Shown here one piece after another: positions 5,486-34,005 of a stretch of 64,000 nt of DNA. This DNA is from Candidatus Omnitrophota bacterium (GTDB taxonomy: Bacteria; Omnitrophota; Gorgyraeia; Zapsychrales; Zapsychraceae): the NCBI GenBank assembly GCA_020429915.1, contig JAGQKV010000006.1, positions 5,458 through 69,457 of the forward strand. The letters are read 5' to 3'. A program made the position numbers and the translations under genes. The notes under the pieces were generated by a model. It was not told where the DNA came from. It made no database searches and was given only the letters and a program-made list of their open reading frames with translations. Position 1 is the first letter of the stretch. Each line of letters opens with the position of its first letter.

Positions 5486-7417
5486 ATGAAGAAAATTTCC
5501 GTCCTGGCCATCATGGTATTCGTGATCGGGGTCGCCTTGCGTGTCCAGCTGTTGCAGGCGCCCTATATCGAGGACGAACGTAAAAATATATATATCGCGC
5601 AACAGATTTCGTTCGAGCCGGGACACGCGTATCTTCCGCTCGAACACAAAGAAATCACGCATCCGCTGTTAAACGTGTATCTGACCAAACTGGGCATGAG
5701 CGTGTGGGGTGAAAGCGGACCCGGCCCGCGTGTGATCCATTTTCTGCTCGGATCACTGACTTTGGCGCTGGTATACCTGTTGGCACGCACGTGGGGCGAA
5801 ATGGCCGGGGTATGGGCGCTGGCCGCGCTGGCTTTTAATCCTTATCATTTGCATGCCACCGTGCGTGCCGAGAATGCCAGCTCGCTGCTGTTTTTTACGG
5901 CGCTGGCGCTGTGGCTTTTTTACCGCGCGATGGAGACCCGGCGCGGTAAGTGGATGATCGCGCTGGGACCTGTTATGGGGGCCGCCTTTTTGACCAAGGG
6001 CGTCAGTCTCCTGCTGGTGCCGGCCATGGGACTGCTGTTGATAGGTCACGCCGATCAGCGCTTCTGGTGGCGCTCCCGCAGTCTTTACATCGCGGTCGGG
6101 CTTTTCATACTGACGATCAGCCCATGGCTGATTTGGGTGAGTGTGCACGGGACGTATCAGCTGATGTTCGAGCCGGGTATGTATAAACCCGCGATGATCC
6201 GGTTGAATCCGACCGCCGTTCATTTTTACCTGATTGATTTGTTTTGCCGGTTGAACCACGTCGAACCGCGGATGGTCACCAGTTGGGAGTACGGTCGTAT
6301 GGATATCGTCTCGGGACTGGTGTTGTTGCTGGGCGTCGTGTGGGCGGCTCTGAACAAGCCGGACCGCCTGGCGCGTTGGCTGCTGGCCTGTTTTACCGTC
6401 ATCGTGGTCGTGTTGAGTTTTTTCCGCCGGGATGGCAACGCCGTCGGTGAGTTTTGGTGGGTCAATCTGAGCTTGATTCCGGCGGTTTGTCTGGCCGGCA
6501 GGATGCTGTCGTCCTGGAACAGCTGCGGCAGGATGTTTCGTCTGATGACCTTCGGTGTCTTTGTTTTCTTATGCGTCCACGCGGCCTGTTTTGTCCGTAC
6601 GTTGCCGGGCGATATCTTGTATCCCCCGCGGCGGTTTTGTCCGTTGGTCGATCAGGATTACACGGTGGGCCGTCTGGCCATGACGGACGGCCGCTATGAT
6701 TTGGCCCGCAGCGAGTTTAAACAACATCTCCGGTACGCACCGAACAATGTCGAGATTCTCAGTTTTCTGGGATTGCTGAATTTTCACCAGGGCCACTTTG
6801 ATGCGGCCGTCGACTATTGGGCGCGGGCGTTGGTTTTGGATCCGCATTATGTTCATGTCAGCAACAAGCTGATCAATCACAGTGCGGTGTTGCGCGCGCA
6901 TTTCTTGCGGCGATGGTATGAGAATACAACCGATCCGCAGACCGCTTACTATTTGGGCGTGGTGAATTTCTACGACGGGCAGTTCGATCAGGCCCGGGCC
7001 TTTTTCGACCGCTTGTCCCGACTTGAGCCGGGGTTGCCCGCGGCGGCTTATTACAAGGCCCGTATTCACTATGCCAAAAAAGAGTACGCTGTGGCCGAGA
7101 CAATGCTCCGGGAGGTCTTGCGGGGAAGGCCGGGTTTCACCGGCGCCCATTTTGCGCTGGGCCAAGCCTACTTGAAAGAAGGCCGTTACCGGGAAGCCGT
7201 GGCCGCCTTTGACGGGGAATTGCGGTCCAATCCGCAGGATTTAAAATCGATGTACTACCGGGCACAAGCGTTCGAGAAATCGGGTGCCGCGGGCGAGGCG
7301 TCCGTTGCCTACCGGGCCGCGCTGGATCTCGTTCACGCCGATCTGATTCAGCGTCTGCGCGAGACGGATCCGTCGCCATACATCAAAATACTGTCATTAA
7401 CAAGGGGAGCGTCTTGA
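5486..7417 (+). CDS. GT-C (PMT_2/ArnT-like) glycosyltransferase fused to a C-terminal TPR domain (TMTC-like architecture)
   Basis: Start taken at the ATG at 5486 (MKKISVLAIMVF..). 'YIEDERKNIYIAQQI' is a first-loop DE motif. The C-terminal ~230 aa carry TPR-like repeats (e.g. 'AYYLGVVNFYDGQFDQARAFFDRL..', 'AHFALGQAYLKEGRYREAVAAF'). Confidence 0.6.
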   Translation: MKKISVLAIMVFVIGVALRVQLLQAPYIEDERKNIYIAQQISFEPGHAYLPLEHKEITHPLLNVYLTKLGMSVWGESGPGPRVIHFLLGSLTLALVYLLARTWGEMAGVWALAALAFNPYHLHATVRAENASSLLFFTALALWLFYRAMETRRGKWMIALGPVMGAAFLTKGVSLLLVPAMGLLLIGHADQRFWWRSRSLYIAVGLFILTISPWLIWVSVHGTYQLMFEPGMYKPAMIRLNPTAVHFYLIDLFCRLNHVEPRMVTSWEYGRMDIVSGLVLLLGVVWAALNKPDRLARWLLACFTVIVVVLSFFRRDGNAVGEFWWVNLSLIPAVCLAGRMLSSWNSCGRMFRLMTFGVFVFLCVHAACFVRTLPGDILYPPRRFCPLVDQDYTVGRLAMTDGRYDLARSEFKQHLRYAPNNVEILSFLGLLNFHQGHFDAAVDYWARALVLDPHYVHVSNKLINHSAVLRAHFLRRWYENTTDPQTAYYLGVVNFYDGQFDQARAFFDRLSRLEPGLPAAAYYKARIHYAKKEYAVAETMLREVLRGRPGFTGAHFALGQAYLKEGRYREAVAAFDGELRSNPQDLKSMYYRAQAFEKSGAAGEASVAYRAALDLVHADLIQRLRETDPSPYIKILSLTRGAS

Positions 7418-8670
7418 AAGTTATCCCGCGCCGGTTGGTCGCGTTTGAAAAAGGGGAATTGGCCGCGAGCTGGCGGGTCCTGCGCGGCGAAGAGGAGGCC
7501 GGACTGGTTGCTGAATTTGAGCAGCGGTTCACCGAGTACGTGAGCGTCCCCTACGCGATGGCGGTCTCTTCGGTGCGTGACGGTTTTTCGTGCCTGCTGG
7601 ACGTGCTCGAATTCGCGCCCGGCGACGAAATCATCATGGCCGCCTACAACTATCATGTCATGCCGCTGATCGTTAAAAAGCGCGGACTGGTGCCGGTCTT
7701 CGCGGACATCGATCCGGACACGCTGAATATCGATCCCGGTCAAATCGAAAGATTGATCACCGACAAGACCCGGGCGGTTATTGTGACCCATCTGTTCGGA
7801 CGGTCGGCACGCGCGACGGAAATCCAAAAGATCTGCCGGGAACGCGGGCTGATATTGCTCGAGGACGCGGCCCACGCGTGCGGGGCCGAATGCGACGGCC
7901 GCAAGGTCGGCGGGTTCGGCGATTTCGGGATGTTCAGCTTCGGGACCGGTAAATGTCTGGTGACGCTCGGCGGGGGGGTCATCGTCTCCCGGAACACGGA
8001 AGTGTTTACCAGGCTCCGGGAGCGGTTGGACAATCAGGACCACCCGGGGGAACGCTGGCACAGCACCAGTTACTATCTTAAATGCCTGCTGCAAATTGCA
8101 CTCACCAACCGGACGCTGTTTGCGGTCCTGGTATATCCTTGGATTTTGTTGGCCGACCTGATACGGCTGGACATCATCGAACGGCTGACCGGAGATAAAT
8201 ATACGTCGGCGGATGTCAGCGCCAAGAGCCAGGTGCAGCCGTTCGCTGAATTCCAGGCCCTGCTCGGATTGCAGCAACTCAAGCGGCTGGACGCCATGAA
8301 CGACAAACGGATCGCGCGCGCCCAGCTGCTCGACCGCTATCTTGAGGATGTGAAAGAGATCAAACGGATCCCGGTTGTGGGGAACCGCGAGCACATCGCC
8401 CAGTCGTACACCGTTATTTGCGATGATAAGAACGCGCTGCGGCGGCATTTGCTGCGTAAAGGCATCGACACCAAAGAATCGTCTATGCGCAATTGCGCGC
8501 AGTTCCTGGGGGCGGACGGCCCGTTTCCCGGTATGGCCGGGATCGACGACCGTATTGTCGAATTGCCCTGTTCCCAACACCTGAGTGAAAACGAGATGTT
8601 ATACCAGGCCAATGCGGTCCGGGACTTTTTCGGCTATCCGATGACATCCGGTCCGGGCGGAGGCAGATGA
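7414..8670 (+). CDS. DegT/DnrJ/EryC1/StrS-family PLP-dependent sugar aminotransferase
   Basis: 'GDFGMFSFGTGKCL' is the PLP-lysine region. Overall fold-type I aminotransferase layout typical of nucleotide-sugar aminotransferases. The overlapping 410-aa antisense ORF (7348-8580) is rejected. Confidence 0.8.
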   Translation: MKVIPRRLVAFEKGELAASWRVLRGEEEAGLVAEFEQRFTEYVSVPYAMAVSSVRDGFSCLLDVLEFAPGDEIIMAAYNYHVMPLIVKKRGLVPVFADIDPDTLNIDPGQIERLITDKTRAVIVTHLFGRSARATEIQKICRERGLILLEDAAHACGAECDGRKVGGFGDFGMFSFGTGKCLVTLGGGVIVSRNTEVFTRLRERLDNQDHPGERWHSTSYYLKCLLQIALTNRTLFAVLVYPWILLADLIRLDIIERLTGDKYTSADVSAKSQVQPFAEFQALLGLQQLKRLDAMNDKRIARAQLLDRYLEDVKEIKRIPVVGNREHIAQSYTVICDDKNALRRHLLRKGIDTKESSMRNCAQFLGADGPFPGMAGIDDRIVELPCSQHLSENEMLYQANAVRDFFGYPMTSGPGGGR

Positions 8671-9477: not shown

Positions 9478-11226
9478 ATGAGAAGCAAAGACATCTCCAT
9501 CGCTTTTATTTGCAATGCCGTTTTATTGGGCCTGTTATGCGCCGATGCCCTCGGTCTCAATCTGTATCTCCGGGCTTTGTTCGTCAATTTGGCGATGTAT
9601 GTGGTCCCCGGAACGGGCTGGCTGGGCATCATGCGCCGGCATGTTTCGAGCGCGGTGTTCCTGTTGTTTTTTCAATTCGTCCTGTCCGTTGCCGCGTTGA
9701 TCGTCCTGCATTTGGGATTCCTCGCCGCGGGACACGTCCCGGACACGCACACGTTTTTAGTCGGTCTGCTGGTCCTGACAAATGCCGGTATTCTCGTCAG
9801 CCGGCCGGCAGCGGCGTTCGCCATGCTGCGTTTTGATTACTGGCGGATCGTGATTCTGGGCGTGACCCTGGTCTGCGTTTATACCTGCGTGTTTGCGGGC
9901 ATGCGCACTCTCCCCGGACAGTTGGACCTCGACGGCGAACATCAGGGAACGGCCTACGGGATCGTCCACGAGTTCCGGCCCTATCTGACCAGCGACATCA
10001 TCGCCTCGCCGTACTACTTCGCCCATCCGCCGTTAACCAATATTTTTAACGCCTACAGCACTTTGCTGTTGAACCGGACGGAAGATTACCGTTATTTTTA
10101 CGAAACCGCGAAACAGACCGAGCGCGTGCTCGGCTTGCGCCCCGGCGGACAGGAACCGGTGAGCCTTGGTCCGGAGCGGGGAAGTTTGATTTACTTCCAG
10201 GGCAGTACCTATGTCTTCCGGACGATGCGCGGCAATGACATGCTGGACCGGCCGATTTCCCGGCAAAGGGTGATGGAACATTTGGCGGCACCGGATCAAA
10301 AGAAGTTCTTCGACGATCCGCGGCCGTTTCCGGCGCGCGCTTCGAATATTTTTGCCAGCCTGTTCGTCCTGTGCGTGCTGTTTCAGTGGATCACCAAGCT
10401 GACGAATTCGCGGCTATTGGGTATCGTCGCCGGATTTGTCTATGTCTTCTCGCCGGGGATTTTCATCCGCTCCTGTTTCTCCGAGCACGTGGCCTTCACC
10501 AACGCCCTGTTGGTCGTATTGGCCTATCAGTTTTGTTTTCCCGAAGAATTCCGGGGAAAGGGACGTTGGGGCGGCCTGCTGGCCTATGTCCCGGGGCTGA
10601 TCGCCGGGCTGATCAATCAAAAAATAGTAATCATGGTCGCGCCGGTACTGGTGATGGAAGTCGTGACGTGTCTGCGGCAACGCGGGGCCGGGTCGTGGGC
10701 GGTCCGGCTTGTGAAGGCGGCGCCCATTCCCGCGGGTTTCGCGGCGGGCACGGTGCTGTTTTGGATCTACGGTCTGGCGATTGACCCGGCGGCGTTTTTT
10801 ATTTCGCATCTGCGGACACATTTTTTCGACCGTCTGCTGCATTTGAACACCATGTTCGGCGGGGATTATCCCGGCGCCGGTCTGCTCTGGTATCAGTTCA
10901 ATCACGAATTTCCGCCTTTTTTGCTGAGCGTCTTCGCTGTGTTGTATAGTTTAAAGAGCCAGCGCAACCGGACTGTCGTCTTTTTGACCGCCTGGGCCGT
11001 TTTCGGCGGAGTCCTGTTTTCCGTGGTCGACTGGAAACAAACCAATCATCTCACTCAGCTGACGATTCCGTTGTTGGCCGTGTTGATGATGTATATCGAA
11101 CAGCAGCCGCTCGCCTACAAACGGGTGTTAAAGGTTTTGGTGGGGTTGTGTCTGCTTTACGGTTTCTGGTTCGACATGCAGCTGCTGGCGGATTTTCATT
11201 TTTACAAACCGGTCAGCGGATGGTAA
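9478..11226 (+). CDS. Polytopic membrane protein, possibly a further GT-C-type glycosyltransferase
   Basis: More than 12 hydrophobic helices. A loop 'DGEHQGTAYGIVHEF' is reminiscent of GT-C first-loop motifs. No firm family assignment. Confidence 0.4.
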   Translation: MRSKDISIAFICNAVLLGLLCADALGLNLYLRALFVNLAMYVVPGTGWLGIMRRHVSSAVFLLFFQFVLSVAALIVLHLGFLAAGHVPDTHTFLVGLLVLTNAGILVSRPAAAFAMLRFDYWRIVILGVTLVCVYTCVFAGMRTLPGQLDLDGEHQGTAYGIVHEFRPYLTSDIIASPYYFAHPPLTNIFNAYSTLLLNRTEDYRYFYETAKQTERVLGLRPGGQEPVSLGPERGSLIYFQGSTYVFRTMRGNDMLDRPISRQRVMEHLAAPDQKKFFDDPRPFPARASNIFASLFVLCVLFQWITKLTNSRLLGIVAGFVYVFSPGIFIRSCFSEHVAFTNALLVVLAYQFCFPEEFRGKGRWGGLLAYVPGLIAGLINQKIVIMVAPVLVMEVVTCLRQRGAGSWAVRLVKAAPIPAGFAAGTVLFWIYGLAIDPAAFFISHLRTHFFDRLLHLNTMFGGDYPGAGLLWYQFNHEFPPFLLSVFAVLYSLKSQRNRTVVFLTAWAVFGGVLFSVVDWKQTNHLTQLTIPLLAVLMMYIEQQPLAYKRVLKVLVGLCLLYGFWFDMQLLADFHFYKPVSGW

Positions 11227-11241: not shown

Positions 11242-13017
11242 ATGCAACGGGTCGTTGATTGGTTGAGGGACAATCGCACACTGTTGTGGCTGACATGCGC
11301 GCTGTGTCTGTTGCGGGCGGCGCCCTTATTCAGTGTGGAGGCGATTTGGCCGTCGCTCGAACGCTTCTATGCCGGAACCGTGGCCCGCGAGATGGCCGAC
11401 GGGCTGAAAATGCCACTCCTGGATTATCAATTCAGCAGCTATGAACCCGGATGGCTGCTGGCGGGTTTGCTTTGCCTGCCCTTTATGAAGCTCGTCGGTT
11501 TCACGTCGTTCGGCATGGCGTTGGCCGGGATATTATTGGACGCGATTCAATTTGTGATTTTTTATCGCATCCTGAACCGTTACATCAATCCACGCGTGGC
11601 ATTGTTTTACGGTTTGCAATATATCATCGCGCCCTACATTCTTCACGTCACCAACATCTTCGTCAACTTCAGTTATTTTGACCTGCCCTTTCTGACCGCC
11701 CTGTTTTTGGGAATGTATCTGAAGATTTTTCGTGACAACGGGGTTCACGCCGTTGTCGGGGGGACGGGCTTTTCGTTGTTTTGTCTGGGGCTGTTGGGTG
11801 GATTCTCGACGTGGCTTTGCCTGGCTTTTTTACTGATCGCCGTGCCGTGCCTGGTGCATTGGCGGGTTTATGTCCGCCGCGCGCGGCCGCGGGAAGTAGG
11901 CGCGTTTCTGGGCGGGTTCCTGATCGGCTTGAGCCCGTTGTTACTGCGCTGGTCCACCTTTGCCGGCGGAATCCAAAGCGGAATCCTTGAGCGGATCCTG
12001 GCGCAGGACGCCGGCGGGTTCATTTCAAGGTTGATTGGATTTCTTGCGGTGCGGCCGGCGTTTGCCTGGTCGGTGTTCTTTCAGTACATCGAGATCCTGG
12101 GTGTCCTGCTTTTTGTGATACTCATTATTCTGAGGAGAAAAGAGCTCGGCCGGGCCGTATCCGGATTATTCGGCGGCCGGGTCGGGGCTCCGGACGACAA
12201 CGGACTTCCGGTGATCTATATCGTCTATCTCCTGACGTTTATCACGGTATTCTGTTCGAGTGATTTTTCGAATGAACGGTATTTTCAGCCTGTGTATCCC
12301 TTTTTATTCGGCTGCAACGCCATGGCCGTTGACGGGCTGATGCGGATGCGGTCGCGCGTTTGGGGCCGGATCGGCACGGGGGTCCTGACTTTGCAATTGC
12401 TGCTGGCGGCGGCCGACTGCGCGACGGTCCCGCTGTATCGGACCGCGCCGAACCTGGCGCTCTTTCGCGACCGGGCCTATTCATACGCGTTGATCGGTTG
12501 CCTGTCCAGCTGGCGCTTCCGCCTGGACCCGCGGCGGGTGATGGCCATTTACGCGCGGTTGAAATCCGACGAAGACCGGCAGGCCTACATGCGGGGCTTC
12601 GGCTTCGAACTGGCAGTGGAAAGTGACGATACGCTTGCCGACGATTATTTCCAGTACCTGCGGGAGCATTTCCCCACAGACGACGGACGCCGCCGCGCTT
12701 TTCGCGTCGGACTCTTGCTGGGGCAGGGACAGCGGCAGTACGAAGGTACCGCGTTGTCCGAATTTTATCCGACGATACTGCAGTCCGTCACCCGGGAGGA
12801 GGTGCGACGATTCGTGAAGGAACAGGTTCGGCTGATCGGTTTTGAGGACGATGCCGACCGGCCGGCGTTATATGCGGGACTGGGTCAACAGTTTTTTGCG
12901 GTAGCCCCGGACATCGGGCTGCCCGCGGCGGAGGTAATTCCGTTTATTGAAGAGAAGTACCGGGGTGATTTCTTTCAAGGCCGGTTGCTGGCCGATCGTT
13001 ACCGGGATCAAATCTAG
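11242..13017 (+). CDS. ArnT/PMT-like membrane protein with a unique C-terminal soluble domain (paralog 1 of a tandem pair)
   Basis: 591 aa. 'WPSLERFYAGTVAREMADG' resembles the ArnT 'DEARYAEIAREM' loop. The N-terminal ~330 aa are membrane-embedded; the C-terminal ~250 aa are soluble. Clear paralog of the next gene. Confidence 0.5.
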   Translation: MQRVVDWLRDNRTLLWLTCALCLLRAAPLFSVEAIWPSLERFYAGTVAREMADGLKMPLLDYQFSSYEPGWLLAGLLCLPFMKLVGFTSFGMALAGILLDAIQFVIFYRILNRYINPRVALFYGLQYIIAPYILHVTNIFVNFSYFDLPFLTALFLGMYLKIFRDNGVHAVVGGTGFSLFCLGLLGGFSTWLCLAFLLIAVPCLVHWRVYVRRARPREVGAFLGGFLIGLSPLLLRWSTFAGGIQSGILERILAQDAGGFISRLIGFLAVRPAFAWSVFFQYIEILGVLLFVILIILRRKELGRAVSGLFGGRVGAPDDNGLPVIYIVYLLTFITVFCSSDFSNERYFQPVYPFLFGCNAMAVDGLMRMRSRVWGRIGTGVLTLQLLLAAADCATVPLYRTAPNLALFRDRAYSYALIGCLSSWRFRLDPRRVMAIYARLKSDEDRQAYMRGFGFELAVESDDTLADDYFQYLREHFPTDDGRRRAFRVGLLLGQGQRQYEGTALSEFYPTILQSVTREEVRRFVKEQVRLIGFEDDADRPALYAGLGQQFFAVAPDIGLPAAEVIPFIEEKYRGDFFQGRLLADRYRDQI

Positions 13018-13028: not shown

Positions 13029-14804
13029 ATGGAAGGCATCGGCCGCTGGCTGAAGAATAACCGGAGTCTGGTGATCCTCACCGCCGCCCTTATCGCGGCG
13101 CGGGTGTCGTTGATTTTCTGCACCGAGCAGCTGTGGCCGTCGCTGGAACGGTTCTACACCGGGACCGTGGCCAAGGAGTTGGCCGACGGCATGGCCATGC
13201 CGCTGTGGGATTATCAGTTCAGCAGCTATGAGGCCGGGTGGCTGCTGGCGGCCCTGCTGTGCCTGCCGTTCTTTAAACTGTTCGGTTTTACGTCCTTTGC
13301 CATGGGCTTGTGCGGCATTATTCTCTACGTCATCCAGTTCGTTTTGCTCTACCGGCTGATCGAAAGGGGACTGAACCGCCGGGTCGCCGTTTTCTTCGGC
13401 CTGCAATACCTGTTCGCGCAGTATATCTTCAATCTCAACGCCCTGTTTGTCGGCTTTAACTACTTTAACATCGTTTTCCTGTACGCCCTGTTCCTCACTT
13501 TTTACCGGGCGGTCTTCCGCGACAATGCGATCCACGGTGTGGTCGGCGGGCCGTTGCTTTCGTTGTTTTTCTTAGGGCTGCTCGGCGGGTTTTCGACATG
13601 GGTGTGCTACGCCTTCGCGTTGATTGCGATCCCGTGCTTCATTCACTGGTGGATTTATTACCGTTCCCGGGATCTGCGGACGGTAGTGAGTTTTGTCGCC
13701 GGTTTCGTACTCGGCGGCAGCCCGTTGTTTTTTCGAATCGCCACGTTCGCCGGTGGGATCAAGACGGATATCCTGGCCAAGATCATCGCACAGGATTTGC
13801 CGGGCTTTATCGCGAAGTTTTGGCATTTTATCGGATTTGAACACAGTTACGCGCGTTCGGTGTTTTCCGATTACCTGGAGATCCTGGGAACGATTTTATT
13901 TGCGCTGATCATCTTTTTGAAGCGAAACGACCTGGGCCGTTTACTCGGTGCCGTTTTCGGATCGCGTGCCGTGGAAGAAGGCGAGAGCGGGACGTTTTTG
14001 CTGTTCTGTCTGTACCCCGCGGCCTTCCTGACCGTGTTCTGTCTGAGCGGTTTCGCGGACTACCGCTACTTTGCGCCGGTCTATCCGTTTGTCTTCGCTG
14101 TGAACGCCATTGCCGTCGATCTTCTGCTGAGTTACCGGAACCGATTTGTGAAGGGATTGGGGGCCGGATGTCTCGGGGTTTTATTGCTTTTTGGGGTGGC
14201 CGATAGTATAATTATACCGCTATATCCGGTTGCACCGAATCTTGCTTTATTCCGCGACGAGGCCTATTCCTACGAACTTTTGGGGTGTCTGGTCAGCTGG
14301 CGCTTTAAGGATGACCCCAGACGGGTTATGCGTGTGGTCAACCGGCTTTCCGACGATGAGAAACGCACGGATTTATTGCGCGGTTTCGGATTCGAGCTGG
14401 CCTTCGACGGGAACGAAGAACTCATCAAAGAGTACGATGTTTTTTTCGCCAACACCTACCGTCACCGGCCGGCGTTCCTGAAGGCTTATTCCAAGGGGTT
14501 TGTGATGGGGCTCGGCCACGAATATTTCGACGGCACGCCCCTCGGCGAATATTATCCGGAGGTCTTGCGGAATATCCCGCGCACCGGAGTCGAGCGGTAC
14601 TTGGTTAAGAAGCTGGACTTGATCGATATGCTCGATCCCCGGTACCGGCCGAAATGCTACATCGGTTTAGGTTTCCAGTTTTCCGCCCTTGAGGAGGAAT
14701 ACGGTCTGGACGCAGAATTTGTAACGCACCGGATCGGCACGGAGTATCACGACGACTTTATGCGTGGTGTCGCGCTTGGAAAAACATATACTTACCGGCT
14801 CTAA
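13029..14804 (+). CDS. ArnT/PMT-like membrane protein (paralog 2 of the tandem pair)
   Basis: 591 aa and collinear with the previous gene ('WPSLERFYTGTVAKELADG', 'DYQFSSYEAGWLLAALLCLPF', 'ALFRDEAYSYELLGCLVSWRF' conserved between the two copies). Confidence 0.5.
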   Translation: MEGIGRWLKNNRSLVILTAALIAARVSLIFCTEQLWPSLERFYTGTVAKELADGMAMPLWDYQFSSYEAGWLLAALLCLPFFKLFGFTSFAMGLCGIILYVIQFVLLYRLIERGLNRRVAVFFGLQYLFAQYIFNLNALFVGFNYFNIVFLYALFLTFYRAVFRDNAIHGVVGGPLLSLFFLGLLGGFSTWVCYAFALIAIPCFIHWWIYYRSRDLRTVVSFVAGFVLGGSPLFFRIATFAGGIKTDILAKIIAQDLPGFIAKFWHFIGFEHSYARSVFSDYLEILGTILFALIIFLKRNDLGRLLGAVFGSRAVEEGESGTFLLFCLYPAAFLTVFCLSGFADYRYFAPVYPFVFAVNAIAVDLLLSYRNRFVKGLGAGCLGVLLLFGVADSIIIPLYPVAPNLALFRDEAYSYELLGCLVSWRFKDDPRRVMRVVNRLSDDEKRTDLLRGFGFELAFDGNEELIKEYDVFFANTYRHRPAFLKAYSKGFVMGLGHEYFDGTPLGEYYPEVLRNIPRTGVERYLVKKLDLIDMLDPRYRPKCYIGLGFQFSALEEEYGLDAEFVTHRIGTEYHDDFMRGVALGKTYTYRL

Positions 14805-14818: not shown

Positions 14819-15985
14819 ATGTATCAATCCCAGGAAAAACCGACCCGCCTTAATTATTTCCAGAAAGTCGTCAGCCATCTTACTTATTTTGATTTCGTCT
14901 ACAAAAATCCCTGGGTTGTAGCCCGCCTTATCAAGAATTATTTCCGAATCATCGTCTTGCGGCAGCAGGTTATCCGCATTATCGATATCGGCGTTACCGC
15001 CGCATGCAACGCCAAGTGCGCGCATTGCTGCAGCGACGCCACCGTCGACACGCGCTGCACCACGCAAGGTGCGCCTGAGATGCGTGAACCGCTCGACATT
15101 GAAGAAATCGAAGATATCATCGCTCAAAGCGTGAAGATGGGTGCCGTGATTTTCAATTTCCTCGGTGGCGAACCACTGGTGTACAAAGACATTTACCGCG
15201 CCATCCGTTGCGTCAAGAAGCATCATGCCATCGCCGGGATGTCGACGAATGGATTTCTGCTTTCCGAAAAGGTCGTCGCTCAGTTGAAAGAAGCCGGGCT
15301 TGACTGCATTCAGGTGGACCTCGGCGGGGGACTCAATCCCAAGGAAATCGACGAGATCCGCGGACTCACCGGATGTCTTGACAGGGCGCTGAACGGGATC
15401 CGGCTGCTGAAGGAGGCCAACATCAAGGTCATTATGAGTACGATCATGACCAAGAAGAATGCCGCCAACGGGGACATCTGGAAGATGGTTCAGCTAGCCA
15501 AGGACCTGAACATCAAGATCAACGTCAATTGCTCCTCACGCACCGGCGGGTGGGCCGGCAATGAGGACAGCGAGCTGTCCGAAAAGGAATTTGCGATCTA
15601 CAAGGAAATCATCAAGATGCCGCACACGCGGTGGGCCGGCAGCACGAATTATTTTGCCGAGTTCTGTCCCTGCGGGACCGAAAAGATCATGATCACCACT
15701 TACGGTGAGATTCAGCCCTGCGGGTTGATCCCGCTTTCTTACGGGAATTTCCGCAGCGAGGCGATCAATGATATCTGGACCCGCATGCAGACCCAGAAGA
15801 TCATTTGTGACGGCAAGAAGGAAAAGGCCTGCCGCTCCGCCTGGGATAAGGACATCATCCGGCTGAACACATCCATGTATGAAACGGATAAGCCCAAACC
15901 GTTGCGGGTCGACGACATTCCCCAGGAGCGGTTGAAGGCCACGGAAAAGCCGGCGGATTCGACGGTCAATTCTTCCCAATCGTAG
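14819..15985 (+). CDS. Radical SAM enzyme with C-terminal SPASM/twitch domain
   Basis: 'CNAKCAHC' CX3CX2C radical SAM cluster motif. A second C-terminal Cys cluster 'CPCGTEK..PCG' is typical of SPASM/twitch auxiliary domains. An AGGAGG RBS lies 7 nt upstream. Confidence 0.75.
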   Translation: MYQSQEKPTRLNYFQKVVSHLTYFDFVYKNPWVVARLIKNYFRIIVLRQQVIRIIDIGVTAACNAKCAHCCSDATVDTRCTTQGAPEMREPLDIEEIEDIIAQSVKMGAVIFNFLGGEPLVYKDIYRAIRCVKKHHAIAGMSTNGFLLSEKVVAQLKEAGLDCIQVDLGGGLNPKEIDEIRGLTGCLDRALNGIRLLKEANIKVIMSTIMTKKNAANGDIWKMVQLAKDLNIKINVNCSSRTGGWAGNEDSELSEKEFAIYKEIIKMPHTRWAGSTNYFAEFCPCGTEKIMITTYGEIQPCGLIPLSYGNFRSEAINDIWTRMQTQKIICDGKKEKACRSAWDKDIIRLNTSMYETDKPKPLRVDDIPQERLKATEKPADSTVNSSQS

Positions 15986-16007
15986 TCACGATCCGGAGAC
16001 AAAAGTC

Positions 16008-16052
16008 AATTGCGGCAAGGGTTTGCGATAATCTCGCGCTTGCCGCCCGGGT
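16008..16052 (+). terminator. Stem-loop immediately downstream of the first rSAM gene (possible terminator or attenuator)
   Basis: GCGGCAAG(16008-16015)...CTTGCCGC(16045-16052): an 8-bp perfect inverted repeat with a 29-nt spacer/loop that contains a smaller hairpin. There is no strong T tract. Confidence 0.3.
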
Positions 16053-16105
16053 TTAAGTATTCTATCCTTGTAGCATAGATTTCCGCTCCGGCCGCCGTCC
16101 GATAT

Positions 16106-16136
16106 TTGTAGACAAAGAGGTTAATGGGGATATAAT
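16106..16136 (+). promoter_or_regulatory. Candidate sigma70-like promoter for the second SPASM rSAM gene
   Basis: TTGTAG(16106-16111)-N19-TATAAT(16131-16136) inside a 231-bp AT-rich intergenic region. Confidence 0.3.
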
Positions 16137-16216
16137 ATTACTACTATAAATCAGTAGAAACACGGATACCGGATGCGTGGACAGACGCCCGAACGACCCG
16201 CCTCAAAGGCCATAAG

Positions 16217-17272
16217 ATGATAAATATAAACAACTTATGGAAACACAGAAAATTGCTGCGTAACAATTTTCAGATTGTTCCCAGAGTTGTCCAGGATTAC
16301 TACCGGCTGCTGGTCCTGAAACAGCCGGTCCTGCGCAAAGTGGACATTGCCGTGATTGCCGGGTGCAACGCGAAATGTCCTTTTTGTTTTGCCGCGACCC
16401 TGGAAAATGAGGAGGGCCCGCAACTCAGCCTTCCCGAGATTCAGGGGATCGTCACCGAAGCGGTTAAGCTCGGGGCCATCGCGGTGGAGTTTATCGGCGG
16501 TGAACCGTTGATGTGCCGCCACCTCGCCGACGCGGTCCGCTTTGCCCGCCGCCAGAATGTCCTCACCAGCACCACCACCAACGGCCTGCTGCTTACACAC
16601 AAAAAGATCCATGAGCTCAACGACGCCGGCCTGAATGTCATCCAGATCAGTCTCGACAGCGCCGATCACCGCGAACACGATGCCAGCCGGGGTGTACCCG
16701 GCTGTTACGCCAAGATCATGCAGGCCATTGAATGGATTCGCGAAACCGATATCGAGCTGATGCTCAGCACGGTGGCCACCAATGAAAACCTCAGTAACGA
16801 CGGTGTCATGAAGGTTGTGAAGTTTGCCGAGCATCTCGACGTCCCGATCACCGTCAACCCGGCCTCCAAGGCCGGGGGCTGGAAAGGGAATGCCAACGTC
16901 CTGCTGACCGATGAGAACCGCCGCCGTTTCGAACAGATCGTGCAAACGTCCCACGCGCGCTGGGCCGGCCAGGTGAATTTCCTTAAAGAGGGGTGTCCGT
17001 GCGGTAAAGAGGTTATTTATGTCACGGCTTACGGACATGTGATCCCCTGCGGTTTTATCCAGATTTCTTACGGAAATATCCGGCAGGAACCCCTGACCCA
17101 AATCTGGGACCGGATGCAGGAGCACCGGCTCATGCAGGAAGATAAAAACACCTGTATCGCCGCCTTTGACAAGGCATTCATTAAGGATTACATCGATCCG
17201 CTCGATCGCCGGGAAGATTTGCCGGTTTACATCCACGACCATCCCACATACAAGCAGAAGGTGAACGGATAA
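16217..17272 (+). CDS. Radical SAM enzyme with SPASM/twitch domain (paralog of 14819-15985)
   Basis: 'CNAKCPFC' CX3CX2C motif and C-terminal 'CPCGKE..PCG'. Collinear similarity with the preceding rSAM (e.g. 'VLRKVDIAVIAGCNAKC' vs 'VIRIIDIGVTAACNAKC'; 'HARWAGQVNF' vs 'HTRWAGSTNY'). Confidence 0.75.
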   Translation: MININNLWKHRKLLRNNFQIVPRVVQDYYRLLVLKQPVLRKVDIAVIAGCNAKCPFCFAATLENEEGPQLSLPEIQGIVTEAVKLGAIAVEFIGGEPLMCRHLADAVRFARRQNVLTSTTTNGLLLTHKKIHELNDAGLNVIQISLDSADHREHDASRGVPGCYAKIMQAIEWIRETDIELMLSTVATNENLSNDGVMKVVKFAEHLDVPITVNPASKAGGWKGNANVLLTDENRRRFEQIVQTSHARWAGQVNFLKEGCPCGKEVIYVTAYGHVIPCGFIQISYGNIRQEPLTQIWDRMQEHRLMQEDKNTCIAAFDKAFIKDYIDPLDRREDLPVYIHDHPTYKQKVNG

Positions 17273-17274: not shown

Positions 17275-18699
17275 ATGAAAGTACTGCTCGTCAATCCCTG
17301 GTCGCTTAAGAAATTCAATGTGATTGTGATTCCCAACATCAGTCTGGGTTATCTCGCGGCGTCGCTGATGAAGGCGGGGCACGAGGTGGAAATTCTGGAT
17401 TGTGTCCGGGACCGTATCGATCCCGATCAATTTGAAAGCCGGATTCGTGAGAATCCCGACTATGACCTGATCGGATTTTCGTTGTTTACGACCTACGTAG
17501 GAGCGGTCAAGAAATATACCGAGGCGATCAAACGGATCAATCCGCGCATCGCAACCGCGGTGGGCGGTCCGCACGCCGTGCTCGAACCGGTGGAAACTTT
17601 GGAGATCCTCACGGACGTCGACTTCGGATTCCGTGGCGAGGCGGAAATCGGGATATGCCAACTCGTCGAAGTCCTCGGCATGGAGGCCGACCCGTATGGT
17701 CACGACCGGTTGCGCGAGGTGGATAATCTGGTGTGGCGCGACAAGGGCGGTGAAATCGTTTGCAATCCCCGCGTGATGATCGACGATCTGGACAGCCTGC
17801 CGTACCCGCCGTGGGATATTATGAATCCGGGCAAGTATCCGCTGGCCCCGATCGGAGTCTTTTCCAAACGGCGCAAAGTTGCGCCGATCATCGCCACGCG
17901 CGGCTGCCCGTACCCGTGCACTTTTTGCGCGGCCGGAAAGATGTCCGGCAAAAAGATGCGCACCCGTTCGGTGGAAAACATTCTGGATGAAATCAAACTG
18001 CTGGTGGACAAGTTTGGCGTCGAGGAAATCAATATCCTGGATGATAACTTTACGTTGCAACACAAGCTGGTCGAGGATTTTTGCCACGGATTGATCGACA
18101 ACAATATCGATATTACCTGGTCCTGTCCCAACGGGGTCCGGCTCGACACGCTCGACGCGGAGTTATTGAAGTTGATGGAGCGGGCCGGCTGCTATTCCTT
18201 CGGTGTCGGCATCGAGTGGGGCACGTCCAAGATGCTCAAGATCACGCGCAAGTGCGTGACGCTGGCCACCATCCGTGAAAAGGTGGACCTGATCAAGGCC
18301 AACACCAATATCCGGGTGACCGGCTTCTTCATGCTCGGGCATCCGGAAGAAACGATCGAAGACGTGGAGGCTACCATTGACTTTGCCTGCAGTCTGAATA
18401 TCGACCGGGCCAATTTTTTCAACTTTTCGCCGTTTCCGGGGATTGTCGAATACGACAAACTGAAACGGGAAGGGAAGGTCATCAAGAACTGGTATGACTC
18501 GCTTTATATCAACAGCGTCGTGTACACGCCGCGGCAGATGACCCGCCAGCAATTGGTCAATCTGCAGCGCAAGGCCTTTTGGCGGTTCTACACGCGCCCG
18601 CGGATATTCTTTAATATTCTGAAGGAGATTAAATCGTTCAGCCAGTTTATGGTGGTCTTCAAAAAATCGATGCGGTTAGTCTTCGTTCACGGTCAGTAG
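17275..18699 (+). CDS. B12-binding-domain radical SAM enzyme (class B rSAM)
   Basis: N-terminal Rossmann-like cobalamin-binding region ('VLLVNPW...GYLAASL..GHEVEILD'). 'TRGCPYPCTFC' CX3CX2C motif. Confidence 0.75.
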   Translation: MKVLLVNPWSLKKFNVIVIPNISLGYLAASLMKAGHEVEILDCVRDRIDPDQFESRIRENPDYDLIGFSLFTTYVGAVKKYTEAIKRINPRIATAVGGPHAVLEPVETLEILTDVDFGFRGEAEIGICQLVEVLGMEADPYGHDRLREVDNLVWRDKGGEIVCNPRVMIDDLDSLPYPPWDIMNPGKYPLAPIGVFSKRRKVAPIIATRGCPYPCTFCAAGKMSGKKMRTRSVENILDEIKLLVDKFGVEEINILDDNFTLQHKLVEDFCHGLIDNNIDITWSCPNGVRLDTLDAELLKLMERAGCYSFGVGIEWGTSKMLKITRKCVTLATIREKVDLIKANTNIRVTGFFMLGHPEETIEDVEATIDFACSLNIDRANFFNFSPFPGIVEYDKLKREGKVIKNWYDSLYINSVVYTPRQMTRQQLVNLQRKAFWRFYTRPRIFFNILKEIKSFSQFMVVFKKSMRLVFVHGQ

Positions 18700-18703
18700 T
18701 GAG

Positions 18704-20116
18704 GTGCGTACGGTGTCTACGGCGAAAGTATCGTTAATTCGACTCGACCTGGGAAACAGCAAAAATATCAAGCATCCCTACCATTGTTCTCCGCCTTTTT
18801 CTTTAAAATATCTGGAAGCGATCCTGCGGGAGAGCGGCTTTGAGGACGTACGACTCTACGATGCCATGCCGGGCCGTCACCGCAATGAAGATGTGCTTGC
18901 CGAACAATTGACCCGTCGGCCGGACTTTGTCATTTATACGGTGAACGTCACCACCCTCAAGGAATTCCGCGCCTTCAATGCCCGTCTCAAACAGGAGCGC
19001 CCGGTGCTGACGGTGGCTATGGGGTCGATCGATCCGCGGTTCGTTCCGCCGGAGCTGGATATCTATCTGCCCGGAGAGGCCGAGGTGGAGGCCGCACAGC
19101 TTTTGCAGCGCATCGTTGACGGGGAAAGCGACGCCGAGACGGAAATCACCCGTTACGCCAAATACAAACAGGGACCGCAGCCGAATTTTCTCGTCCACAA
19201 TCTGGATGACCTGCCGTTTCCGGTTTACACCCGTGATGAAATCAAGGACTACCGGTTCATTTATCCGGTGCGGATGTCGCGCAAATTGCGCTGGGGTCAT
19301 ATCCTGTCGTCGCGCGGATGCCCGTATAAATGCACCTTTTGCTCGCCGGTGACGCGGGAAAGTTACGGCGCGAAGGCCCGGTTACGCTCGGCCGCCAATG
19401 TAGTCGATGAGATCGAGCGTCTGAAAGAGCAGGGTGTGAACATGATCAGCTTTGACGACGACCTGTTGACCATTACCCGCCGGCATATCACGGAGTTGTG
19501 TGATGAGATGATCCGCCGCGACGTGCAGATGAACTGGCTGGCGCATTCGCGCATCGACAATATCGATTACGAATTGCTGCGCAAAATGAAGGCGGCTGGT
19601 TGCGTGCTGCTGCGTTTCGGCGTCGAGTCCGGATCCGCCCGGATTGTGGCGTCTTTGACCAAATCGTTCAAGAAGATCGACTGGAACGACCAGGCCAAGA
19701 GAATATTCCGTTATGCCAGGGAGCTCGATATCGCTACCCATGCGCTGTTGATTATCGGCAGCCCGACCGAAACCGAGGCTGAGATCCAGGAAACATTTCA
19801 ACTGGTAAAGGAAATCAACCCCGACATCATGCAGATCCACTTCTTCAGTCCGTATCCGGGTTCCGTCAGCTATGAGCAGCTCAAGACCGAGTTGAGCGAA
19901 GATCAGGTGATGAACATGTTTCATTACGAACTTCCGCGGCAGACCATGGGTTCCCTGAATTCGGAGCGTTTAGGGCAAATCCGGTCGGACCTGTACCGGC
20001 GCATCTTTCTTAATCCGCGCTTCTTTTTCAGTCACATGCGCAAGTATTTCAGTTTTTATATGACAAACCTCGATGTCTTCTACCGGCTGTCCAAGGGTCT
20101 GATTTACATTAGATAA
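18704..20116 (+). CDS. B12-binding-domain radical SAM enzyme (paralog of 17275-18699)
   Basis: GTG start. 'SRGCPYKCTFC' motif. Collinear with the preceding gene ('LDDLPFPV', 'AAGCVLLRFGVESGS'). Confidence 0.7.
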   Translation: MRTVSTAKVSLIRLDLGNSKNIKHPYHCSPPFSLKYLEAILRESGFEDVRLYDAMPGRHRNEDVLAEQLTRRPDFVIYTVNVTTLKEFRAFNARLKQERPVLTVAMGSIDPRFVPPELDIYLPGEAEVEAAQLLQRIVDGESDAETEITRYAKYKQGPQPNFLVHNLDDLPFPVYTRDEIKDYRFIYPVRMSRKLRWGHILSSRGCPYKCTFCSPVTRESYGAKARLRSAANVVDEIERLKEQGVNMISFDDDLLTITRRHITELCDEMIRRDVQMNWLAHSRIDNIDYELLRKMKAAGCVLLRFGVESGSARIVASLTKSFKKIDWNDQAKRIFRYARELDIATHALLIIGSPTETEAEIQETFQLVKEINPDIMQIHFFSPYPGSVSYEQLKTELSEDQVMNMFHYELPRQTMGSLNSERLGQIRSDLYRRIFLNPRFFFSHMRKYFSFYMTNLDVFYRLSKGLIYIR

Positions 20117-20120: not shown

Positions 20121-21389
20121 ATGACCAAGAAGTTACCCCGCGACAAGCGCGGCCCGCTCGTCGGGATTATATTCTTTCTCGTTCTTTTGTTTCTGATCGA
20201 AGCGGCGTCCTATTTGTGTCCGGCCAAACCCGACCGGCTGGAACGGATCCGCGCCGTATTGCGCCAGGACAGCCAGTTGTTCTGGCGCCAGCGCGCGCAT
20301 TTGAATACCGTCTTTGAGGGCGCGGCCGTACGGACCAACCGGTTGGGACTTCGCGACGAGCCGGTGAGCAAGGGCGGAAAGAAGCCGGTACTGCGCATCG
20401 TGACCCTCGGTGCCTCGCCGACATTCGGGTGGGGGGTAGAGCAAAACGATACCTACGCCCAGGTGCTTGAACGGATCCTGCGCGACACCTTAAATACCGA
20501 GCAGGTGGAGGTGATCAACGCCGGACAGATCGGTTTCAGTTCCTATCAGGGGCTGAAGTTTTTCCGGGAGGTGATCCTGCCGTTGAAGCCGAATATGATC
20601 ACCGTCTCGTATGTGATCAACGACGTGGACAAGTACCGGTTTTTCCGCAACCACTCGGCCCCTGACAGCCAGCTGAAGCCGCAGAGCGGATTGCTGGTGG
20701 CCGTGGAGAACGCGCTGGAACACAGCCGGTTTTTTCGTTTATATCGCAAGTTGGTCAACGGGACCAAATCGGCGTCGCAACAATTTTTCGGGGAGCGCGG
20801 CACCGGCGAATACCGGGAGTCACGGCGGGTGTCCCCGGAGGAATATCGCGCGAATATCACGGCACTGATCGATTTGGCACAACAGCACGGTATCGACGTG
20901 GTCCTGGTCAAGATGCCGGTCAATCTGCCGCAGCCGGTGAAGGTCCCGGAAAGCAATGTGATCCGGGCGAAGCAGACCGTGACCGAGGCGATGGTGTGGG
21001 CCGAGCGTGGTTACCGGGAGGAAGCCATCCGTTTACTGCAACAGGCGCTGGCGTACAATCCCAACACGCCCCGGGCGCACTATTATCTCGGGCAGCTCTA
21101 CCAGCGCACGGGCAAACGCAAGCAGGCCCGCAAACATTTTGAACGCACCGTTGTCCTGGAACTGTACGAATGCGCGCGGCTGGCCCTGGAGTACCACCGT
21201 GTGCTGGACGACATTGCCGCGCAGCGTGATGTTCGTCTGGTCGACGTGGTCACGGCCTTTGACGAATACCGCCGCTACGGCGGAGACTACCTGTTTCTGG
21301 ATCCGGAGCATGACACCATTCATCCCAACCGCACGGGTCACGCCGTGATCGGCTGGGCCATTTACGACGAAATCTTCGCGCGGCCGTGA
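20121..21389 (+). CDS. Membrane-anchored SGNH/GDSL-family hydrolase with an inserted TPR module
   Basis: N-terminal TM helix. Block I 'VTLGASPTFG', block III 'VINAGQIG', block V 'DTIHPNRTGH' (DxxHP). TPR-like 'AIRLLQQALAYNPNTPRAHYYLGQLYQRTGKRKQARKHFERT' sits between blocks III and V. Confidence 0.65.
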   Translation: MTKKLPRDKRGPLVGIIFFLVLLFLIEAASYLCPAKPDRLERIRAVLRQDSQLFWRQRAHLNTVFEGAAVRTNRLGLRDEPVSKGGKKPVLRIVTLGASPTFGWGVEQNDTYAQVLERILRDTLNTEQVEVINAGQIGFSSYQGLKFFREVILPLKPNMITVSYVINDVDKYRFFRNHSAPDSQLKPQSGLLVAVENALEHSRFFRLYRKLVNGTKSASQQFFGERGTGEYRESRRVSPEEYRANITALIDLAQQHGIDVVLVKMPVNLPQPVKVPESNVIRAKQTVTEAMVWAERGYREEAIRLLQQALAYNPNTPRAHYYLGQLYQRTGKRKQARKHFERTVVLELYECARLALEYHRVLDDIAAQRDVRLVDVVTAFDEYRRYGGDYLFLDPEHDTIHPNRTGHAVIGWAIYDEIFARP

Positions 21390-21402
21390 GCCTGCGCAAC
21401 CG

Positions 21403-21636
21403 GTGAAGACGATGACAAAGCCGAACGAACAACCCGATCCCCAACGGAAGCCGGAACGGCTCAAGAACAAGAAGATCAACACCAACAAAGAACTGTTGGT
21501 CGAGCTGTTCCAGATGATCAAGGAGCACAAGAAATGGTGGCTGTTGCCGTTCCTCTTAGTTCTGGCCTTTCTCAGTATTTTTGTGAACCTGGCCGGTAAC
21601 TCCTCCATTCTTCCCGCGATATACGCCCTGTTTTAG
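21403..21636 (+). CDS. DUF5989-like small membrane protein
   Basis: C-terminal 'ELLVELFQMIKEHKKWWLLPFLLVLAFLSIFVNLAGNSSILPAIYALF' matches the DUF5989 pattern (..KERKKWWLLPIIL..L.S..APFIYTLF). There is an unusual ~25-aa basic N-terminal extension; the start may be further downstream. Confidence 0.5.
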   Translation: MKTMTKPNEQPDPQRKPERLKNKKINTNKELLVELFQMIKEHKKWWLLPFLLVLAFLSIFVNLAGNSSILPAIYALF

Positions 21637-21686
21637 TATCAATCCGCGCACCGTCCGCCCGGACAGGCCATTCGGAATATTCCGTC

Positions 21687-22439
21687 ATGAACAAAAACCA
21701 TATGAAAATAGCGACCGTCATCCTCATTGTGGGTGCTGTGGCCTATAGTGTGTATGTTTTCCTGCAGGAGAGCGGCCGCGCGCGCATGGAGCAGCATTGG
21801 TCGGGGCAGCGTTTTGCCGCGCGGGATTATTATCCGCTGACGCCCGGGAACAAGTGGACATATCGTATCAGTGGTGATGACGAGCAATCCCGTTTGGACG
21901 TCGAAATCACCCAACGGGTGCAGTGGCAGGGACGCGATGCCGTCCGGGTGACTTTCAACGACGCGGCTTCAAAGATTCTCGGATTCGCCGAGAGCGGTCT
22001 GGTTAAATATCAGGAGATCGACGACGGAGAACAGGAAGTTTATGATCCTCCAGGCAGCATATTGCCCGATTTGACGTTCGGCGAATCCAGGGTGTTTCAT
22101 CCCAAATACGTTATGCAAACGGCGGACGCGGAGGTCGCCACCCGGGCTGCCGCCGAAATGAGTTTTTGGCTGGATACCATCGAAAGCGTCAAGGTGCCGG
22201 CCGGCACTTTCCGGGATGTCCTGAAAGTCGGCTATTACGACCGTTGGGAAGAAGAGGACGGGAGTTTCGATATCAGCCGCGGATATATCTGGTTTGCCAG
22301 GGGCGTCGGGATTGTTAAAATCAAAGGCTCGGCCACCGAAGTCGATCCCGAGAGCGGTCGGCGCGAGACGGAAAAGGAAATGCACGTGCTGGTATCGTAT
22401 CATATCGCCGGCGATGCACGGGAGGGCCGTAGTGAATAA
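21687..22439 (+). CDS. Hypothetical membrane-anchored protein
   Basis: N-terminal TM helix followed by a ~200-aa soluble domain. Codon usage is consistent with neighbouring genes. No motif recognised. Confidence 0.45.
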   Translation: MNKNHMKIATVILIVGAVAYSVYVFLQESGRARMEQHWSGQRFAARDYYPLTPGNKWTYRISGDDEQSRLDVEITQRVQWQGRDAVRVTFNDAASKILGFAESGLVKYQEIDDGEQEVYDPPGSILPDLTFGESRVFHPKYVMQTADAEVATRAAAEMSFWLDTIESVKVPAGTFRDVLKVGYYDRWEEEDGSFDISRGYIWFARGVGIVKIKGSATEVDPESGRRETEKEMHVLVSYHIAGDAREGRSE

Positions 22440-23757: not shown

Positions 23758-23811
23758 GTGAAAATATGCTAGAATATAAATACTTATATTATTACCCGGA
23801 CAGGATTCCCC

Positions 23812-26760: not shown

Positions 26761-26961
26761 ATGAAAACGATACGGAAAATAATGGCTTTTATCTTGTGCG
26801 GGATCGGATTGATTTTGCCGTGGAAGCTGCGCTGCATCTACATCGAGATCCTGGGCTGGATCACCCAGTTTGTTTATTTGTCTTATATCGTCATTCTCAA
26901 ATTTATTCTACAGGAACTGCAAAAGGCCAAGGCCGAACAGGCAAACTATGAAACTCAATGA
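26761..26961 (+). CDS. Small hydrophobic protein (two TM helices)
   Basis: 66-aa ORF starting 3 nt after the upstream stop. Hydrophobic. Overlaps the next start by 14 nt. Confidence 0.3.
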   Translation: MKTIRKIMAFILCGIGLILPWKLRCIYIEILGWITQFVYLSYIVILKFILQELQKAKAEQANYETQ

Positions 26962-27799: not shown

Positions 27800-27800
27800 A

Positions 27801-28169: not shown

Positions 28170-28172
28170 CTT

Positions 28173-33920: not shown

Positions 33921-34005
33921 GTGGAAAACCCGTGGAAAACTTTGTGGGCAGGTGATCAGTATCGGGAATTTTTTGTGAAATATCTAGTTTATTTCGTTGT
34001 TGGTC

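Follow-up and report, generated by a model that had tools for sequence, protein, structure and literature searches.

What do two radical S-adenosylmethionine (SAM) enzymes act on when their genes stand in tandem among genes for glycan synthesis? Radical-SAM genes with a SPASM or twitch domain commonly serve as beacons in the search for peptides that are synthesized ribosomally and modified post-translationally (RiPPs). The pair that raises the question lies in a 64,000-nucleotide stretch of a Candidatus Omnitrophota genome (GenBank assembly GCA_020429915.1, contig JAGQKV010000006.1, positions 5,458 to 69,457 of the forward strand), called the window below and numbered from its first letter. 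The two genes, A and B, are as follows.

14819..15985, + strand: twitch radical-SAM paralog A, an open reading frame (ORF) of 388 amino acids (aa), with AGGAGG 7 nt upstream, the motif CNAKCAHC and Pfam Radical_SAM and SPASM matches
16217..17272, + strand: twitch radical-SAM paralog B, an ORF of 351 aa, with the motif CNAKCPFC, Pfam Radical_SAM and SPASM matches and an AlphaFold2 (AF2) model at pLDDT 91

An earlier look at this DNA without database searches (the sequence-only reading) had seen two tandem SPASM/twitch radical-SAM paralogs with no peptide substrate gene, and had considered a non-peptide substrate such as a sugar likelier. Our answer goes the same way: the substrate of A and B is probably non-peptide and glycan-related, with a probability of roughly 60%.

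The tandem pair is as described, both ORFs being present, and the two products are paralogs with 35% identity over 348 aa (BLASTP, E = 3e-86). Both fall within the radical-SAM superfamily, with Pfam Radical_SAM scores of 79 bits (A) and 77 bits (B) against a cutoff of 29.5 bits; both have the GGEP form of the SAM-binding GGE motif in addition to CX3CX2C, and the AF2 model of B shows the alternating strand-helix core of a radical-SAM partial TIM barrel. The radical-SAM cysteines of B are C50, C54 and C57, and those for an auxiliary cluster are C260, C278 and C313, plus the clade-specific C262. Conservation was assessed in an alignment of A, B and 139 relatives (141 family members), in which CX3CX2C is conserved at 99%, C260 at 100%, G273 at 99%, C278 at 100% and C313 at 99%. 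B retains all of the family-conserved residues S145, D147, H154, D155 and R158; A carries D145, G147 and I154 in place of the S, D and H of the family, and by these residues B reads as the canonical copy and A as the divergent one. Two extra cysteines, C163 and C262, are invariant in the A and B clades, yet C262 occurs in only ~9% of the family. Judged by their motifs, both enzymes appear to be catalytically intact.

Do they carry a SPASM or a twitch domain? A full SPASM domain has the seven-cysteine motif CX9-15GX4C-gap-CX2CX5CX3C-gap-C and two auxiliary clusters (PMC6231123); a twitch domain has the first half of that motif, with enough cysteines for one auxiliary cluster. The Pfam SPASM matches are weak (25 bits for A and 33 bits for B). 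At the C terminus, A and B have CX12GX4C (C260, G273 and C278) and one distal cysteine (C313), and no CX2CX5CX3C block was found in A, in B or in the 141-member alignment. Because only the CX12GX4C half is present and the second block is missing, A and B are predicted to be twitch enzymes with one auxiliary Fe-S cluster each, for which the conserved C260, C278 and C313 are enough. The SPASM/twitch label of the sequence-only reading therefore stands for a one-cluster twitch domain and falls for a full SPASM domain, and its comparison with anSME was a poor one, anSME being a two-cluster SPASM enzyme that acts on protein. In MoaA, three cysteines hold the auxiliary cluster, which has an open iron site (PMC6231123). 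The three-cysteine pattern of the family as a whole would resemble that of MoaA, and in the A and B clades C262 could act as a fourth ligand, giving a cluster resembling that of BtrN.

To which family do A and B belong? A profile of 25 sequences, run over 1.84 billion cluster representatives, gave a score of at least 284 bits to at least 150 full-length ones. The 7,912 matches at E ≤ 1e-30 were not taken as the family size, since that threshold is barely above the scores of known families, and only the top 150 were counted. Against PDB sequences, the same profile scores best with SkfB (114 bits), followed by MoaA (97), BlsE (92), PqqE (91), the Tes radical-SAM core (77) and BtrN (60). In the loci fetched for comparison, a local hidden Markov model (HMM) leaves a gap between the family members, at 250 bits or more, and other radical-SAM/SPASM genes, at no more than 158 bits. 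The best NCBIfam model for both proteins is AhbD, at 109 bits for A and 120 bits for B against a cutoff of 500, and 60 family members compared with NCBIfam give a best E-value of 1.5e-46 against any model. Assignment to a known family through NCBIfam, Pfam or PDB sequences was rejected, no score reaching a family cutoff, and the profile check called for earlier finds A and B not to be orthologs of a known peptide maturase or cofactor enzyme. By these scores the pair belongs to a distinct, unnamed and large twitch family that is uncharacterised; our literature search found no description of it, nor of a cluster type combining radical-SAM, DegT and B12 enzymes. The close A and B clades are rare, with two carriers among the GTDB species representatives, one labelled Omnitrophota and the other an unclassified metagenome-assembled genome. 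Proteins of a Candidatus Omnitrophica metagenome-assembled genome match the window at 100% identity. The best PDB matches of the AF2 model of B in Foldseek are BlsE, SkfB, SuiB, MoaA, PqqE, DesII and anSME, and the fold does not discriminate a sugar from a peptide substrate, because enzymes acting on either match at a TM-score of ~0.6.

Some members of the family are joined to other domains or to one another. Among the top family representatives, the following fusions and tandem modules were found.

P0186 and P0257: twitch domain fused to a DegT aminotransferase (twitch::DegT)
P0156: glycosyltransferase family 2 (GT2) domain fused to a twitch domain (GT2::twitch)
P0158, P0161, P0214 and P0253: twitch domain fused to a class-I methyltransferase
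P0209 and P0254: B12 radical-SAM enzyme fused to a twitch domain
P0137, P0159 and P0249: two or three tandem twitch modules per chain, each with its own CX3CX2C and CX9-15GX4C

The twitch::DegT and GT2::twitch fusions, together with the gene context, support a sugar as the likelier substrate. That A and B lie in a glycan cluster had been proposed before and is borne out, including for a neighbor without a Pfam match, whose product has a GT-C fold. Several of the neighbors are listed here.

7414..8670, + strand: DegT/DnrJ/EryC1-family, pyridoxal phosphate-dependent sugar aminotransferase (Pfam 213 bits), syntenic in L001, L003 and L012
8667..9446, + strand: classical short-chain dehydrogenase/reductase (SDR), overlapping the DegT stop codon and syntenic in relatives
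9478..11226, + strand: GT-C-fold membrane glycosyltransferase-like protein, no Pfam hit, AF2 pLDDT 89, best Foldseek match ArnT (5f15; E = 2e-5)
17275..18699, + strand: B12-binding radical-SAM enzyme 1 (B12_1), starting 2 nt past the stop of B, the most conserved of the block (83% and 62% identity)
18704..20116, + strand: B12-binding radical-SAM enzyme 2 (B12_2), a paralog of enzyme 1 at 25% identity
20121..21389, + strand: SGNH/GDSL hydrolase-TPR protein, starting 4 nt past the stop of B12_2

For the GT-C-like product, the Foldseek matches after ArnT are only other GT-C glycosyltransferases down to rank 24, and the motif D150-x-D152-x-E154 is invariant in the alignment. In total, the envelope glycan cluster holds four B12 radical-SAM genes, six GT-C-type membrane proteins and several SGNH-TPR proteins.

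How stable is this arrangement? The order DegT, SDR, GT-C and, further on, A, B, B12_1, B12_2 and SGNH is retained in the related loci L001/L011, L012 and L002/L003, and is counted as conserved in four lineages. A has separate orthologs at 60% (L001), 55% (L012) and 49% (L003) identity, and B has its own in the same loci, at 67%, 65% and 44%. Because separate A and B orthologs occur in each related locus, the A/B duplication is old and both copies have been kept. Other loci of the family present independent contexts of a similar kind: in L009, a twitch::DegT fusion is accompanied by another family member, one more DegT and two B12 radical-SAM genes; in L010, the GT2::twitch fusion occurs with PMT_2 and a methyltransferase; L004 has YfhO, SGNH and five B12 radical-SAM genes; and L008 has B12 radical-SAM genes, SGNH, a DUF5989 gene and the trio of small ORFs and a PP-loop gene described below.

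Which known systems does this resemble, and what reaction might be expected? BtrN, of butirosin biosynthesis, is a twitch dehydrogenase that works with a DegT-type aminotransferase (PMC9012708). Like A and B, this 2-deoxy-scyllo-inosamine dehydrogenase has a twitch domain with one auxiliary cluster; its substrate is carbohydrate-like and not a peptide, and its keto product passes to the DegT-family aminotransferase, an arrangement mirrored here by the DegT neighbor and the twitch::DegT fusions. BtrN differs in that its similarity to the family is limited to the radical-SAM core (the 60 bits given above), in its length of ~250 aa and four-cysteine auxiliary cluster, in belonging to an antibiotic pathway instead of an envelope glycan cluster and in having no B12 radical-SAM partner. 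By this analogy, the DegT neighbor and the fusions may point, as circumstantial evidence, to a BtrN-like reaction of A and B, in which a secondary alcohol of a sugar or cyclitol would lose two electrons, the auxiliary cluster accepting them. The cytosylglucuronate decarboxylase BlsE (PDB 7vob), an enzyme with a sugar-nucleoside substrate, ranks first among the structural matches of B (Foldseek E = 3.8e-16, TMt 0.66) and among the PDB matches of the single sequence (E = 3.4e-13); it differs in having only 19% identity, an NCBIfam BlsE (TIGR04466) score of 60 bits for B against a cutoff of 400, and an alignment mainly over the radical-SAM core. The aminoglycoside epimerases HygY and NeoN are likewise radical-SAM enzymes that take a hydrogen from a sugar C-H; they are likened to A and B by description and not by sequence, and differ in coming from actinomycete secondary-metabolite pathways. 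In the twitch epimerase HygY, according to the title of a study cited in PMC10991966, one cysteine decides between an epimerase and a dehydrogenase outcome. As far as that title goes, the clade-invariant C163 and C262 of A and B may recall such a cysteine switch. Finally, the joining of a DegT-family aminotransferase, a GT2 domain and ArnT-like GT-C enzymes in the cluster is reminiscent of the Arn pathway (ArnB, ArnC and ArnT), whose logic is to make an amino sugar, load it on undecaprenyl phosphate and transfer it outside the membrane; the Arn pathway differs in having no radical-SAM enzymes, whereas four B12 and two twitch radical-SAM genes are inserted here.

From the gene context and the fusions we infer that the substrate is probably the sugar moiety of a nucleotide- or polyprenyl-phosphate-linked amino-sugar precursor on the cytoplasmic side. 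In each enzyme, a 5'-deoxyadenosyl radical would take a hydrogen from a sugar C-H. The resulting substrate radical could be oxidized through the auxiliary cluster to a keto-sugar, as in BtrN, feeding the DegT aminotransferase, or it could be quenched from the opposite face, giving an epimerization of the NeoN/HygY kind. A and B would catalyze two different, sequential steps, and the two downstream B12 radical-SAM enzymes might add C-methyl groups or perform related chemistry. A lipid carrier would next receive the finished sugar, possibly through the GT2 domain protein encoded at 30689-32722, and the GT-C enzymes would carry out the transfer of this sugar outside the membrane. Dehydrogenation or epimerization as the specific chemistry of A and B is doubtful, and clearly less secure than the nature of the substrate.

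Several observations weigh against a sugar substrate, or against this chemistry. All of the evidence on the substrate is of context, fusion and fold, and on the last of these Foldseek scores the peptide-modifying SkfB, SuiB and CteB about equal to the sugar-modifying enzymes. The three-cysteine pattern found family-wide is nearer to MoaA, with its open iron site (PMC6231123), than to the fully ligated cluster of BtrN. The classical SDR beside DegT could itself supply a keto-sugar, which would make a radical dehydrogenase unnecessary. And in L006 and L007, distant members of the family, which score 339-367 bits with the family HMM, stand beside UbiA prenyltransferase, polyprenyl synthase or glycerol-3-phosphate acyltransferase (GPAT)-type genes, so that the family may include members acting on lipids.

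Could A and B themselves tailor a lipid? Their target would then be hydrocarbon, in a membrane lipid or in the polyprenyl carrier, as tetraether lipids are the target of Tes, Mss, Hbs and Grs. The neighborhoods of L006 and L007 speak for this, as does the profile match to the Tes radical-SAM core, and there is precedent in lipid modification for a SPASM enzyme paired with a B12 radical-SAM enzyme, for example Hbs with Hgm (bioRxiv 10.1101/2023.10.20.563219; PMC13459092). However, no lipid-synthesis gene was found in the 34-kb cluster, and the fusions of the family are to DegT and GT2, not to lipid enzymes. Hbs and Tes moreover have a complete SPASM domain for two auxiliary clusters, and the N terminus of Hbs is extended by ~100 aa. 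Neither feature occurs in A or B, and an identity with Hbs or Tes was rejected for these two reasons, cluster number and the lack of the N-terminal domain. We regard lipid tailoring as improbable, though better placed than the other alternatives.

The explanation that a RiPP-guided search would favor, that A and B mature a peptide or protein made in the cluster or encoded elsewhere in the genome, fares worse. It can draw on the best profile match among solved structures, the twitch sactisynthase SkfB, which shares the twitch domain with A and B and acts in RiPP maturation, and on small ORFs whose conservation follows the cluster as far as the distant locus L008. To find such genes, all ORFs of 20-135 codons in 1-34 kb of the window were compared with six related loci. 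Only three stand-alone conserved small genes emerged (21403-21636, encoding a DUF5989 protein; 26761-26961, an ORF of 66 aa; and 27801-28169, an ORF of 121 aa), all other matches being alternate-frame shadows of conserved genes. The three products, however, are hydrophobic membrane proteins encoded 4-10 kb from A and B. The first of them is

21403..21636, + strand: DUF5989 small membrane protein of 77 aa (Pfam 55.6 bits), conserved in L001, L012 and L008

It does not look like a precursor peptide, and a literature search on DUF5989 found nothing relevant. Nor does the space between A and B, a spacer of 231 bp (15986-16216), hold a candidate. Its forward ORFs are all of 12-22 codons, and the one of 15 aa singled out by the sequence-only reading is present at 16173-16220 but is lost in the close relatives L046 and L047: L046 lacks its ATG, and indels (3 nt and 2 nt) occur in both. 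In the more distant L001, L003 and L012 the spacer itself is missing, A and B abutting or overlapping. A spacer peptide was rejected, since this and every other ORF in the spacer is unconserved, and neither the small-ORF scan nor the spacer comparison found a precursor-peptide gene or any other conserved short ORF adjoining the pair, which agrees with the absence of a peptide substrate gene noted before. The enzymes themselves lack the hallmarks of maturases as well. SkfB, CteB and SuiB all have an N-terminal RiPP recognition element (RRE), and SkfB has an adjacent precursor gene besides, whereas what precedes the first barrel strand in the AF2 model of B is three short helices (residues 1-40) and no strand, and no RRE, a winged helix with a three-stranded sheet, is seen. 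There is no PqqD-like Pfam match, the sign of a separate partner in place of an RRE, among the 25 cluster genes, and neither a peptidase nor an exporter in the cluster. Every NCBIfam maturase model scores far below its cutoff (PqqE 104 against 381 bits, StsB 95 against 625, SkfB 59 against 300 and MftC 56 against 265). Maturation of a ribosomal product is thus quite unlikely.

Least likely of all, and already disfavored, is a diverged cofactor enzyme, of the AhbC/AhbD/NirJ tetrapyrrole type or the MoaA type: AhbD is the top NCBIfam match of both proteins, MoaA scores 85-87 bits and the pairing of A and B is paralleled by AhbC/AhbD and NirJ1/NirJ2, which also occur as paralog pairs, but the scores fall far short of the cutoffs (500 for AhbD, 284 for MoaA, and 87 and 92 against 500 for NirJ2), A and B have a single auxiliary-cluster motif instead of the full SPASM domain of AhbD and NirJ, and no tetrapyrrole or molybdopterin genes lie nearby, nor any moa genes in the window.

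If the spacer encodes no peptide, what is it for? Two features can be placed in it.

16012..16046, + strand: hairpin 3' of A, with a stem of 8 + 5 bp, -18.5 kcal/mol, without a U-tract
16109..16136, + strand: sigma-70-like promoter before B, TAGACA (16109-16114), 16 nt and TATAAT (16131-16136), 11 of 12 consensus positions

Described before as AT-rich, the spacer does have the length of 231 bp given for it, while its overall AT-richness is only mild: its GC content is 0.49, where the flanking genes have 0.535 and 0.549 and the window has 0.558, and falls to 0.32 in a core at 16100-16165. The TATAAT box already seen in the letters is real and is paired with the TAGACA hexamer, and both hexamers and their spacing are conserved in the close relatives L046 and L047, in which B is 85-86% identical, the spacers are 182 and 227 bp long and the ribosome-binding site and start codon of B are conserved. 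Downstream, B, B12_1, B12_2 and the first SGNH gene are separated by gaps of 2-4 nt, with the DUF5989 gene 13 nt further. These short gaps and the conserved promoter suggest that in this lineage a separate transcription unit starts with B, the internal promoter driving B and the genes translationally coupled to it. The stem-loop, too, is present, but its sequence is not conserved: it is deleted in L046, and L047 has an unrelated hairpin instead. It is possibly an mRNA end or stabilizer. An intrinsic terminator after A was rejected, the hairpin having no U-tract and a terminator scanner giving no call. As a whole, the spacer is no more stably folded than its shuffled versions (z = -0.35), and a structured RNA or riboswitch was likewise rejected on that fold and on the lack of an Rfam match even at E ≤ 1.

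The wider cluster, read here as one for making and decorating cell-envelope glycans, is a supercluster of ~34 kb whose genes, from 268 to 33920, share the + strand and are separated by tiny gaps. It begins with YfhO-like, PMT_2 and PMT_2-TPR genes, followed by DegT, SDR, three polytopic membrane proteins, A and B; after B come two B12 radical-SAM genes, SGNH-TPR, DUF5989, two further SGNH-TPR genes and the third B12 radical-SAM gene; it ends with a trio of the 66-aa ORF, a PP-loop-like gene and the 121-aa ORF, a class-V aminotransferase, the fourth B12 radical-SAM gene, GT2-SGNH-TPR and GT9. Two of the three polytopic membrane proteins form a pair of their own.

11242..13017 and 13029..14804, + strand: two tandem polytopic membrane paralogs of 591 aa each, 49% identical, with weak PMT_2 similarity

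They align without gaps, and their duplication is more recent than that of A and B. The occurrence of four B12 radical-SAM genes in one cluster was observed as well (two in 17275-20116, the others at 25136-26758 and 29394-30692); none reaches an NCBIfam cutoff, the best models being the Sden_1168 P-methyltransferase, BchE and HpnJ at 150-181 bits. Four paralogous SGNH/GDSL-TPR proteins are encoded at 20121-25269 and 30689-32722, one of them fused to a GT2 domain, and their number suggests extensive O-acyl handling of the glycan. A conserved group of four genes occupies 26761-29390: the 66-aa membrane ORF, a protein of 283 aa, the 121-aa membrane protein and the class-V aminotransferase. The 283-aa protein has a weakly PP-loop ATPase-like N terminus (QueC/DUF7411-like), the 121-aa protein an N-terminal Cys-Cys, and the aminotransferase is cysteine desulfurase-like; the first three genes are found again in L008, a distant locus, together with twitch and B12 radical-SAM genes, and the group may be a sulfur-transfer module. 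In the regions 21687-23757 and 23812-26758, the longest ORFs overlap by 146 nt (22294 versus 22439) and 134 nt (25136 versus 25269), and the true starts of the downstream genes at 22294 and 25136 are probably later than the first start codon. The supercluster ends at a 1.16-kb stretch without a long ORF (33921-35082), beyond which lie a GH94-like phosphorylase, an ABC sugar transporter and a GH2 enzyme.

What does this mean for the family and its carriers? Twitch radical-SAM enzymes acting on sugars were already known; here an uncharacterised twitch family occurs in an unusual setting, the envelope glycan clusters of uncultivated anaerobes, in which B12 radical-SAM genes abound. The rule that a SPASM/twitch gene marks a RiPP would mis-call this sizeable family, which is a counter-example to it. 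To our knowledge, nearly all known cases of sugars tailored by radical-SAM enzymes come from antibiotic pathways. As a tentative proposal, well short of an even chance as a whole, the twitch family, B12 radical-SAM enzymes and DegT may make up a widespread, undescribed sugar-editing module in anaerobic and mostly uncultivated bacteria, installing keto, amino, epimeric or C-methyl groups on envelope sugars, possibly at a lipid-linked stage, with A and B as two obligatory sequential steps that are sometimes fused. If true, this would provide a functional handle on a large unannotated protein family, and it would show by what routes Omnitrophota and other uncultivated anaerobes can make unusual C-methylated or amino sugars for their surface without oxygen.

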